From positions 30,852 through 94,851 of the forward strand of contig JBQCHL010000025.1 in assembly GCA_051954695.1 (NCBI GenBank): a DNA stretch of 64,000 bases, given 5' to 3'. The notes beneath the pieces were generated by a model. The model was not told the origin of the DNA, searched no databases, and saw only the letters and a program-made list of their open reading frames with translations. Shown in pieces: positions 1,183-14,454 of the stretch. The position numbers and the translations under genes were made by a program. The stretch is from Chitinophagaceae bacterium (GTDB lineage: Bacteria; Bacteroidota; Bacteroidia; Chitinophagales; Chitinophagaceae). Within the stretch, counting starts at the first letter, position 1. Every line of letters starts with the position of its first letter.

Positions 1183-1219
1183 GACTAGAGTGACGGCTAT
1201 CATTAGGGTCACTCTAGTC
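1183..1219. terminator. 12-bp inverted repeat between convergent genes (probable bidirectional terminator)
   Basis: GACTAGAGTGAC (1183-1194) / GTCACTCTAGTC (1208-1219); overlaps peptide stop codon; no strong U-tract. Confidence 0.55.
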
Positions 1220-1537
1220 ATAAGTCCAGGGAGTTTCATGCGTTCCGATCCGATCACTATGCCAATCGTCATTTATTACACCAGTACCAGGATCGGTTTG
1301 ATTCTTTAAGCTCCAAATAGGATATCCACGGCGGCAGTCTGGCCCATCTATAACATGACAGGTGCCACTCGTAAAATCATTTCGCCCCCCATAATCCAGG
1401 TAGGCTCCTGTTCCCGTTAATGCATTGTATTCAAACCAATACAGGAACTCAGTTGAGTCCACCTTTTTCTGGCTTGTAAAAGCGCTTAGGGATATAGCCA
1501 TAATCAAGGCTACTATTCCCCAAAAATACTTTCTCAT
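1214..1537 (-). CDS. Small secreted two-Cys peptide/protein 1 (DUF6520-like), signal peptide + CX7C
   Basis: MRKY + hydrophobic stretch + SLSAFT; C-HVIDGPD-C; about half identical to paralog 13568-13876 by manual alignment. Confidence 0.8.
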   Translation of the reverse strand: MRKYFWGIVALIMAISLSAFTSQKKVDSTEFLYWFEYNALTGTGAYLDYGGRNDFTSGTCHVIDGPDCRRGYPIWSLKNQTDPGTGVINDDWHSDRIGTHETPWTYD

Positions 1538-1563
1538 ACATTTGATTTTATTTGATTAAATGC

Positions 1564-1634
1564 TGCCTGCTTTTTTATACAGGGTTCGGCTGATCCTGTG
1601 CTTACTAATCCCGGTCTACAAGTAGCATTGCAAT
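1564..1634 (-). ncRNA. Candidate structured cis-regulatory RNA, copy 1 (pseudoknot/switch-like)
   Basis: Minus-strand AUUGCAAU..ACAGG-AUCAGCCGAAC-CCUGU-AUAAAAAA-GCAGGCA ending 27 nt before peptide ATG; near-identical core at 13906-13942. Confidence 0.55.
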
Positions 1635-1671
1635 AACAGACTGTACTCTAAAATTGTATTAGATACTTCGC

Positions 1672-12218: not shown

Positions 12219-13511
12219 ATGTATTTAGTGTTTAAACGTGCAGTTCTTTTATTGATTGCTTCAATTGGGTTTATAACCGCAAAATCTCAAAGTATTTCTG
12301 TTGGCGAAACCTGGCCAAATATCCAGTTTAAAGAAGTATTAAACTACCATAAGCCGACTTTGGAGTTTTCAGATTTCCCTGGAAAAGTCTTCATAATTGA
12401 TTTATGGGCCCATGGCTGCAAGCCATGCGTAGAAGCTTTTCCTCACCTTGATAGTTTGCAGGCACAATTTAAAGACCAGTTACAGATTATTATGATCAAC
12501 CCTGAAGGAAAGGATTCAACAATCAGGTATTTTAAAAGAAAGAATAAAATACATGTGCCTAAAAATATCCCGATGGTTACTGGAGAAAAGGCATTATTTG
12601 ATCGATTGAAGACTTTGGGCTATCTCTGGCTGGATTCCTCATGGACGCTCCGGTATGCTGGAGGAAATGATCATACTACAGCAGTTAATATCCAAAAATT
12701 TTTGTCCAATATTCCTTTAACTTTTAAACAGAATCGCATAGTTGAGGACCTAAATATTGACGTGCCTCTAATTTCCGAAGGGGAGGGTCGTTGGCTGGAT
12801 AGTGTAAATTTTTATTCATACCTGTTTCATCATGATTTTCACATGCCCTACCTACGCAGTTTTATACCCGGAAAAAATGGCCCTCCCAACAGGCTTTGTC
12901 TGCCGAACATACGGGTATTAAGTTTATACCGTGCCGCCTTTAATAATGGTTCACTTGAAACTTACACTTCGATGCCTATAGATATTCATGTAAAAGATTC
13001 AAGCTTGTTTTTTCCGCCTACCGGCGAAAAGTTTGATGAAAACTGGGCAATAAATCATCAGTATACCTATGATGTCAAAGTACCGATGTCCAGGGCCAGT
13101 GATATTTATCCGATCATGCAACGCGATCTGGCCCTTCACTTCGGTCTCAAAGCTGAAGTCAAGCTACTTGAAAAAGACTGTTGGGTGTTGGAACCCTTAG
13201 ACCGCCGGTTGTTTGTTTCTACAAGCGGAAAAGCATCTCCCACAACCGGAAAGCCGCAAGTCGATTCTATTAATCGTTTCAGTCATTGGCCATCAGATCG
13301 GCTTTGGTTTACACTAAAACAATACTTCACGCTTTTCTCAGCCCTTCCATTAGTTAACCGGCTATCTTATTCGGGACCAGTGAATTTTGAGATTCATCAG
13401 AATGTTTTGATCTCTGGCAATATGGATTTGTTCAAAGAAGCACTAAAAAAGAATGGTATATCTATTAGGAAGACTAAAGCAAAGATTCCTGTTCTTGTAA
13501 TTACGGATTAA
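12219..13511 (+). CDS. Exported thioredoxin-fold (TlpA/redoxin, CKPC) protein with DUF3738-like C-terminal region
   Basis: Signal peptide; DLWAHGCKPC; colinear paralog of 1-1176. Confidence 0.85.
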   Translation: MYLVFKRAVLLLIASIGFITAKSQSISVGETWPNIQFKEVLNYHKPTLEFSDFPGKVFIIDLWAHGCKPCVEAFPHLDSLQAQFKDQLQIIMINPEGKDSTIRYFKRKNKIHVPKNIPMVTGEKALFDRLKTLGYLWLDSSWTLRYAGGNDHTTAVNIQKFLSNIPLTFKQNRIVEDLNIDVPLISEGEGRWLDSVNFYSYLFHHDFHMPYLRSFIPGKNGPPNRLCLPNIRVLSLYRAAFNNGSLETYTSMPIDIHVKDSSLFFPPTGEKFDENWAINHQYTYDVKVPMSRASDIYPIMQRDLALHFGLKAEVKLLEKDCWVLEPLDRRLFVSTSGKASPTTGKPQVDSINRFSHWPSDRLWFTLKQYFTLFSALPLVNRLSYSGPVNFEIHQNVLISGNMDLFKEALKKNGISIRKTKAKIPVLVITD

Positions 13512-13515
13512 TTAA

Positions 13516-13545
13516 GAACGGCCATCGATTTAACGATGGCCGTTC
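13516..13545. terminator. Bidirectional terminator-like hairpin between convergent genes
   Basis: GAACGGCCATCG / CGATGGCCGTTC 12-bp stem, 6-nt loop, followed by ATTTT. Confidence 0.7.
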
Positions 13546-13567
13546 ATTTTCAAAGCGATCTGACCAT

Positions 13568-13876
13568 TCAAGGTTTTCTGATCTGGTCATCATGGAAATT
13601 GTCATCAATCACCCCTTGTTCCGGATCGCCATTCACCAAATCCTCCAAAGAATATCCTCGACGGCAATCATCTCCCTCCATTTGATTACAGATGGCTGTA
13701 ACAAATAGGCTCCGCTCCCCATAATCCAAATAGGTACCTGCCCCTGATGATATATTATACTCAAACCAATACAACGGTGCAGACTTTACAGCTTTGTCAG
13801 ATGATTTAGCACTTGTAAACGCACTCAAAGACACCGCTGCAATCACAGCGAATAATCCCAATAAATACTTTCTCAT
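13568..13876 (-). CDS. Small secreted two-Cys peptide/protein 2 (DUF6520-like), signal peptide + CX7C
   Basis: MRKY..SLSAFT; LYWFEYN; YLDYG; C-NQMEGDD-CRRGY; paralog of 1214-1537. Confidence 0.8.
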   Translation of the reverse strand: MRKYLLGLFAVIAAVSLSAFTSAKSSDKAVKSAPLYWFEYNISSGAGTYLDYGERSLFVTAICNQMEGDDCRRGYSLEDLVNGDPEQGVIDDNFHDDQIRKP

Positions 13877-13905: not shown

Positions 13906-13981
13906 TGCCTACTTTTTTATACAGGTATTCGGCTATTCCTGCCGGCCAGGTTTGCGCTTGCCTGACCAGGTTCTATTGCAA
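13906..13981 (-). ncRNA. Candidate structured cis-regulatory RNA, copy 2 (overlaps MauE 3' end)
   Basis: UUGCAAUA, 9-bp hairpin CUGGUCAGG/CCUGGCCGG, GCAGG-AAUAGCCGAAUA-CCUGU-AUAAAAAA-GUAGGCA ending 30 nt before peptide ATG. Confidence 0.55.
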
Positions 13982-14408
13982 CAGTTCTTTTATATTTTCT
14001 TTCCATATACCAACCAAAAAACGCCAGAAAGGTCATTATGATATTCAACACAAGATGCTGCTGCCAGCTAAGCACTTCTATTACACCGCCACAGCCACAA
14101 GGCAGTTTCTTCGCAAATAGTAACATACCACCGATATAACCTGTAAAACAAAAAAGCAGGATGCCGGAGAACAATAATGCCTTCTCACGAAACCAGAGAA
14201 TCAACAAACCAACAGCCAGTAACAACTCAATTGCTGGTATACCCCAGGCCAGTTGCCCGCTGAATGGCCGCAACCAGGGCGAAGACCTTAATGCTATATG
14301 GAACCGGTGCAATTGCATTGCTTTACTCAATGCTGTATAAACGAACAACGCAATAAGTACAGCAGCAATAATGGAAACAAGGAGGTGAATAGAGTATTTT
14401 CGCTTCAT
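13917..14408 (-). CDS. MauE/DoxX family redox-associated membrane protein
   Basis: Several TM helices; LFVYTALSK, ELLLAVGLL, LPCGCGG (CxC) and SWQQHL..N motifs; alternative start 14423. Confidence 0.88.
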   Translation of the reverse strand: MKRKYSIHLLVSIIAAVLIALFVYTALSKAMQLHRFHIALRSSPWLRPFSGQLAWGIPAIELLLAVGLLILWFREKALLFSGILLFCFTGYIGGMLLFAKKLPCGCGGVIEVLSWQQHLVLNIIMTFLAFFGWYMERKYKRTVAIEPGQASANLAGRNSRIPV

Positions 14409-14454
14409 AGAATAAAGGTTCACCTGCGATCCAAGAAAAAGGTTCGCCTATAAA

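Follow-up and report, generated by a model that had tools for sequence, protein, structure and literature searches.

A predicted pseudoknot resembling the DUF805b leader class at the end of a mauE-like gene in a Chitinophagaceae bacterium

Introduction

A mauE-like gene of a Chitinophagaceae bacterium ends in a block of sequence which occurs a second time within the window (the whole 64-kb stretch of DNA analysed here), where it lies between genes. This arrangement raises the question of whether the block is kept as the tail of a protein, as an RNA structure or as a DNA site, and which of the neighbouring genes it belongs to. A sequence-only reading had described the copy in mauE as an RNA motif made of fixed blocks with a variable hairpin between them, which could couple translation, process the transcript or stabilise a separate mRNA for the small protein encoded downstream.

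Results

Organization of the element in mauE

The copy that overlaps mauE (copy 2; 13906-13984, minus strand) and the genes on its two sides are composed as follows, where R1 is a covariance model that was built from 17 instances of the motif.

13917..14423, minus strand: mauE-like gene of 168 aa, with a GTG at 14423 and an ATG at 14408; Pfam MauE covers residues 14-139 only
13973..13984, minus strand: P0, a spacer-less palindrome CUGUUGCAAUAG of 6 pairs, one of them G.U
13942..13969, minus strand: optional insert hairpin CUGGUCAGG (13969-13961)/CCUGGCCGG (13950-13942), 9 bp with two G.U pairs
13922..13941, minus strand: P1 hairpin, CAGG (13941-13938)/CCUG (13925-13922), 4-5 bp, which fits both Rfam DUF805b and model R1
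13937-13926, minus strand: P1 loop AAUAGCCGAAUA, in which G13933 C13932 C13931 are the 5' strand of the pseudoknot
13910..13921, minus strand: A-rich linker UAUAAAAAAGUA from P1 to the pseudoknot 3' strand; alignment columns 29-42 are A-rich and conserved
13906..13909, minus strand: pseudoknot 3' strand G13909 G13908 C13907, then A13906; pairs with loop G13933 C13932 C13931
13568..13876, minus strand: downstream gene, encoding a secreted protein of 102 aa (signal peptide, one C-x7-C loop, weak DUF6520 match)

All of the motif elements that had been named for this copy were found again on the minus strand of 13906-13981, and the run GCAGG AAUAGCCGAAUA CCUGU AUAAAAAA GUAGGCA spans 13942 to 13906 (-). 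The UUGCAAUA block (13981-13974) is contained in P0, which is translated within the MauE tail, and the insert hairpin carries a 10-nt loop (CAAGCGCAAA). The ORF ends in VAIEPGQASANLAGRNSRIPV, the last ~23 MauE residues (TVAIEPGQASANLAGRNSRIPV) being encoded by the RNA element, and its stop codon UAA (13919-13917) lies inside the A-rich linker, in agreement with the previous placement of the stop within the motif. The ATG of the downstream gene, at 13876, follows A13906 by 29 nt and lies 30 nt from GGC; the gap of 30 nt that had been given between the motif and this second peptide gene was close, the count after A13906 being 29 nt.

None of 100 shuffles contained a match to the 28-mer core, and model R1 scored copy 2 at 55.1 bits (E 2e-13) and copy 1 at 46.9 bits (E 5e-11; 1560-1600). 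Single-sequence folding energies were no better than those of shuffles on either strand (z -0.65 and +0.5), and the structural evidence is therefore comparative, not thermodynamic.

Further copies in the same genome

Copy 1 has the same parts in an intergenic setting.

About 1560-1640, minus strand: motif copy 1, intergenic, with no mauE upstream
1634-1627, minus strand: P0 of copy 1, AUUGCAAU, followed by a weak 27-nt insert
1579-1599, minus strand: P1 of copy 1, ACAGG (1599-1595)/CCUGU (1583-1579), with loop AUCAGCCGAAC
1565-1590, minus strand: pseudoknot of copy 1, GCC (1590-1588)/GGC (1567-1565)

The block of copy 1 is interrupted by stop codons, and it lies upstream of the gene for a paralogous small protein at 1214-1537(-), with its ATG at 1537. 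An exact 20-mer search of the genome returned the two window copies only, and model R1 returned four matches. The third of these (L032; contig C34, 37099-37140(-)) reaches 45.5 bits with Rfam DUF805b, which is above threshold, and is laid out like copy 2, with a MauE tail, palindrome, insert hairpin and DUF6520-like gene, while the fourth (contig C11, 157897-157940(-)) is weaker, with 35.6 bits under R1.

The window also holds two paralogous modules about 12.3 kb apart, at 1-1537 and 12219-13876, each of which pairs a thioredoxin-fold (AhpC/TSA-like) protein of ~390-430 aa with a leader-bearing DUF6520-type small protein in convergent orientation. The mauE gene is present only in the second module, not in the first.

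Relation to the Rfam family DUF805b

A search of the whole 64-kb window at gathering thresholds gave no Rfam match. Under an E-value threshold, with 151 nt searched, the best Rfam match was DUF805b (RF02914, clan CL00115) at 13906-13942(-), with 21.6 bits and E 2.9e-4, so that copy 2 lies below the gathering threshold of 35.6 bits; copy 1 (L019) had no Rfam match at E <= 1. In the cmscan alignment, the loop AGCCGAA and the tail AAAA.AGUAGGCA of copy 2 equal the DUF805b consensus, UAAAA.AGUAGGCA being identical. The same block stands in the same place where other genomes of the family encode homologues of the small protein, and copies in this position were above the DUF805b threshold at 7 of 20 loci in one set and at 10 of 20 in another, which includes L032 of the same genome; besides L032, 16 related loci pass the threshold. 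By these alignments and scores, the element of copy 2 is a divergent, sub-threshold member of the DUF805b leader class; because that core is already listed as an RNA family, the find is not in itself a new one.

The loop-tail pseudoknot presumably belongs to the published description of DUF805b, and we take the class to be named for an association with genes encoding DUF805 domains. The motif reportedly stems from a survey of 224 motifs by Weinberg and co-workers in 2017. DUF805 is not mentioned in the main text of Weinberg et al. 2017 (PMC5737381).

Covariation and two subtypes

The covariation set comprised 105 model matches with 101 distinct sequences, and the pseudoknot was absent from the search model. 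P1 is paired in 100% of cells, with compensatory changes at three of its four pairs and 15 double changes (CG to AU nine times; AU to GC, CG or UA four times; GC to CG or AU twice). In the loop-tail pairing (GCC/GGC), 98.7% of cells are paired, and two of the three pairs account for 14 double changes and 12 G.U pairs (GC to AU, UA or GU; CG to UA or UG). The observed covariation was equalled by none of 500 shuffles, and sliding the 3' partner left 2-53% paired. Because P1 and the loop-tail pairing both covary, the element is predicted to be an H-type pseudoknot. The sequence-only reading had taken the block for a genuine RNA motif and had proposed such a pseudoknot for copy 1, and both suggestions are borne out by the covariation of P1 and the loop-tail pairing among the 101 sequences.

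The highest mutual information is non-Watson-Crick (0.62) and joins two variable positions, one in GAA[N]A of the loop (U13927 in the window; column 22 of alignment A4) and one in A[N]AGUAGG of the tail (A13914; column 38). The combinations are A-G in 73 copies, C-A/U in 16 and U-U/A in 5, a tail G being found almost only with a loop A, and this covariation splits the family into an A/G and a C/U subtype. The scanned copies of the A/G subtype are above the Rfam threshold, and those of the C/U subtype score 20-28 bits; both window copies are of the C/U subtype, which explains the sub-threshold Rfam score. Across the family alignment, at least 14 positions are at least 97% conserved.

The P0 palindrome and the insert hairpin

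A stem of at least five pairs stands just 5' of P1 (or of the insert) in 82 of 129 instances, compared with 13-18 in displaced or shuffled controls, and 64 of the 129 have a spacer-less palindrome next to P1, compared with 1-2 of 128 in controls. A larger set of 213 instances has the palindrome in 97, in the form of 57 distinct sequences, the commonest of which is UUUAUUGCAAUAAA; others include UAUCGCGAUA, AUUGCGCAAU, UUAUCCGGAUAA and UGCCUGGCCAGGCA. P0 is missing in many copies, such as those of Chryseobacterium. Mismatches in the palindromes are G.U in 15 cases and A.C in 3 (p = 0.0075), and this preference argues that P0 pairs as RNA of the motif strand. Moreover, every palindrome remains self-complementary through its centre, beyond what a plain hairpin calls for; possible reasons are that the RNA dimerises, that the site is bound symmetrically or that a mutational mechanism is at work.

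The insert hairpin of copy 2 is lineage-specific. It is kept in the same-genus orthologues L004 and L228, with one U.G changed to U-A, and other lineages have other hairpins in the same place (CUGCAUUGG/CCAAUGCAG versus CUGCUUUGG/CCAAAGCAG, itself a compensatory pair); most motif copies have no insert. The variable stem between fixed blocks, which had been regarded as typical of real RNA motifs, is thus seen again across loci as different hairpins or none. P0, the optional hairpin and the sub-threshold subtype are features beyond the Rfam DUF805b model.

The C-terminal tail of MauE

Gene context was compiled for 130 oriented motif instances. A MauE-like ORF with the signature CxC[GN]G stands upstream in 60 of them and none in the other 70, and its stop codon falls anywhere between -104 and +75, counted from model position 1. 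The ORF ends ahead of the motif in 26 of the 60 instances and inside or beyond it in the other 34; the most frequent offsets are +24 (15 ORFs) and +27 (6 ORFs), and at least two reading frames are used. The recurrence of the same offset, +24, in 15 of the 60 MauE-linked instances gives a recurrent ending ..NRNSRTPV*, which is what would be expected if the block were conserved because the MauE tail (..IAI..RNSRxPV) is functional as protein. However, the ORFs that end before the motif, the 70 copies which have no MauE-like ORF, the stop codons in the intergenic copy 1 and the end of the Pfam MauE domain at residue 139 all stand against a functional tail, and per-column conservation is equal outside ORFs, with r = 0.91 between 82 copies with no overlapping ORF and 16 copies overlapped by mauE. 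Since the stops are scattered, more than half of the instances lack a MauE-like ORF and the conservation profile is the same outside ORFs, the C-terminal tail of MauE is best read as incidental translation of an RNA-constrained sequence, as had been supposed. The protein-level explanation is extremely improbable and is effectively refuted. The check that had been suggested, on whether MauE C-termini in homologous loci keep this stretch in different frames, was run and gave at least two frames, with the stop at many positions.

In L162 (a MAG labelled Bacteroidetes bacterium 43-16), two motif copies ~530 nt apart flank a MauE/DoxX-like gene, one copy standing before the mauE-like ORF and the other before a small secreted protein, so that the leader can also serve mauE. 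The literature on MauE with bacteriocin yielded nothing relevant.

Downstream genes

A complete ORF of <=140 aa stands just downstream of the motif in 107 of the 130 instances, and an ATG lies 15-27 nt past the model end (20-32 nt past GGC) in 94. The downstream proteins are mostly of the DUF6520 type, with a signal peptide followed by a hypervariable region that has one Cys pair, and DUF6520 was matched in 20 of 28 proteins (E <= 0.1) and in 31 of 85 (E <= 0.01). A minority of the downstream genes encode GG-leader bacteriocin-like peptides or outer-membrane beta-barrels. Pfam scans of the same sets of 28 (E <= 0.1) and 85 (E <= 0.01) downstream proteins found no DUF805. By its position, the leader is linked to the downstream gene, which is usually that of a DUF6520-type two-Cys secreted protein.

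The genes that follow the motif at L069, L132, L135 and L151 (also at L190 and L200) are GG-leader bacteriocin-like genes, not Sec-signal DUF6520 genes. The P1 variant AAGG/CCUU occurs at seven loci, four of which (L069, L132, L135 and L151) precede such GG-leader peptide genes. In addition, a second conserved hairpin with the approximate consensus AAAGUUUUUnUUGCUUUUUnAGAUUAUAAAAGCA lies between DUF805b and the start codon in a subset of loci (L038, L065, L110, L112, L148, L154, L155, L173, L193, L219 and L233), and three scanned loci (including L038, which is the same as L015; the L048 region aside) gave no Rfam match covering it.

Distribution

Model R1 matched 283 of 401 genomes of the family, which represent 128 of 151 genera; a single genome holds as many as 12 copies. 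Across a sample of the phylum, 29 of 151 genomes were matched. When named genomes were scanned for an exact pattern, the motif turned up in Chitinophagaceae, Saprospiraceae, Flavobacteriales (Chryseobacterium, Flavobacterium and others), Sphingobacteriales and Cytophagales. The few matches outside Bacteroidota either lack P1 and a downstream gene or resemble contaminants introduced by binning. The contigs of L199 (a MAG labelled Acinetobacter pittii) and L202 (a MAG labelled Parcubacteria) both carry a Bacteroidota-type DUF805b pseudoknot, which in L199 is accompanied by the UUUAUUGCAAUAAA palindrome and a DUF6520-like gene; the two contigs are probably binning contaminants in those MAGs.

Discussion

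The window copies share with DUF805b the P1 hairpin with its ..AGCCGAA.. loop, the A-rich linker and the AGUAGGCA tail, as well as the restriction to Bacteroidota and a start codon ~20 nt downstream on the same strand, and DUF805b is classed as cis-regulatory. They differ from it in several respects. Their scores do not exceed 21.6 bits against the threshold of 35.6, at the variable positions of GAA[N]A and A[N]AGUAGG, for which the Rfam consensus gives A and G, they carry C or U and A or U, respectively, and their P0 palindrome and insert hairpin fall outside the 35-nt Rfam model. Moreover, one window copy is overlapped by the mauE ORF, and the downstream genes here are of the DUF6520 type, with a DUF805 match in 0 of 113 proteins scanned.

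It seems rather probable that the element is a DUF805b-class leader of the downstream gene, which acts in cis on the downstream cistron, and that the MauE tail is incidental to it; a regulatory or translational activity of the pseudoknot leader is what we infer. A generic cis-acting leader would account for the constant spacing from the AUG, for the strict co-orientation and for the range of genes for exported proteins that follow the motif. No expression platform is visible, neither a terminator nor a conserved alternative pairing, and this points in the same direction. The folded pseudoknot might act in cis on the expression of the downstream cistron, and translation initiation would be the likeliest point of action because the element lies at the 5' border of the stretch that the 30S subunit would bind on a Bacteroidota mRNA without a Shine-Dalgarno sequence. 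A bound factor may take part, and the pseudoknot may, in addition or instead, act on the stability of the mRNA and protect its 5' side.

At the present locus, a ribosome that ends mauE at UAA 13919-13917 would have to unwind P0, the insert hairpin and P1, and probably the pseudoknot as well, so that translation of mauE and the folded state would be mutually exclusive here. This unfolding would be a local consequence, which may modulate the downstream gene at this locus. In this respect the element resembles translational coupling elements, in which an upstream stop lies inside a structure that the terminating ribosome must unfold. However, the overlap with the upstream ORF is not conserved, and since most copies are not overlapped by mauE, the coupling to mauE translation that had been considered cannot be the general function.

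Also considered were a switch pairing GUAGG/CCUGU and a -1 frameshift at A AAA AAG after P1. The former is possible in the window and is rejected because it is broken in the P1 variants AAGG/CCUU and CGGG/CCCG, and the latter is rejected because the mauE stop precedes the heptamer.

Other activities might be assigned to the same fold. An orphan riboswitch, in which a preQ1-I-like pseudoknot binds a small molecule and switches the translation of exported proteins, would be in keeping with the H-type topology, the 5-bp P1, the A-rich L3 and the 3-bp P2, with the strong conservation of at least 14 positions, and with the non-Watson-Crick loop/tail covariation, as in a possible binding pocket. The likeness to preQ1-I (RF00522) extends to the pairing of the loop strand with the 3' tail over 3-4 bp, and the CCUnUAUAAAAAA stretch is, we assume, common to the B. 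subtilis preQ1-I aptamer and the DUF805b-type element. However, the Rfam PreQ1 model gives only 10.9 bits (E 7.1) against a gathering threshold of 39 bits, the invariant ligand-pairing C and a link to queuosine genes are both missing, and membership in preQ1-I is therefore rejected as a likeness of fold only. The downstream genes encode hypervariable secreted, bacteriocin-like and outer-membrane proteins and form no metabolic or transport regulon, and such unrelated kinds of genes are easier to reconcile with a leader of general use than with a switch for one metabolite. With no conserved expression platform or alternative fold seen either, the metabolite riboswitch with a preQ1-I-like fold is unlikely and weakly supported.

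Recognition by a partner is another reading, which we also regard as doubtful, in which an RNA-binding protein or an RNase would act at the element to give a stable processed 5' end or co-regulation in trans, uncoupling the peptide mRNA from mauE. The many copies per genome, up to 12, before functionally similar exported proteins and the conserved single-stranded GAA.A and AGUA, which adjoin helices, are consistent with such a site, and the self-complementarity of P0 up to its centre would fit a symmetric partner or RNA dimerisation; the analysis yielded no candidate protein, however, and P0 is dispensed with in many copies. The palindrome, which is perfect, and the position directly upstream of a gene would equally suit a DNA-level element, be it a promoter for an alternative sigma factor or an operator with the palindrome as the site of a dimeric regulator, and a canonical Bacteroidota -7 box (TAnnTTTG) was found within the 150 nt upstream in 3 of 70 intergenic cases. 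Such boxes are nearly absent upstream, so that the promoter is not located by them, and a scan for sigma-70 promoters and terminators gave chance-level matches only. Against a DNA site, compensatory changes preserve two interleaved pairings, and G.U is tolerated and A.C is not, a pattern that recognition of DNA would not produce. Hairpin inserts of ~30 nt push P0 and P1 apart, which a promoter of fixed spacing would not allow, and the core has no -33/-7 consensus, all of which makes this reading very unlikely.

As a more far-reaching and distinctly speculative idea, to which we would give little weight, DUF805b including its C/U subtype might be a phylum-wide, Shine-Dalgarno-independent module that docks a ribosomal or regulatory factor ~25 nt before the AUG and co-ordinates families of exported disulfide peptides (DUF6520 and GG-leader bacteriocin-like). 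P0 would then add RNA dimerisation or a symmetric protein site, and the contact between loop and tail, A.G in some copies and C/U.A/U in others, would tell two functional subtypes apart.

The main value of the cis-acting DUF805b-type leader lies in annotation. The Rfam DUF805b model misses the whole C/U subtype (20-28 bits), including both window copies, and the tails of many Chitinophagaceae MauE-like proteins (..IAINRNSRTPV) would be translated RNA structure, not a protein motif. In Chitinophagaceae, the leader marks DUF6520-type two-Cys secreted proteins, often with MauE-like partners, and may therefore serve as a handle for finding such cassettes and for probing the role of DUF805b, for which the paralogous pair of the window, one copy intergenic and one overlapped by an ORF, would be a convenient test case.
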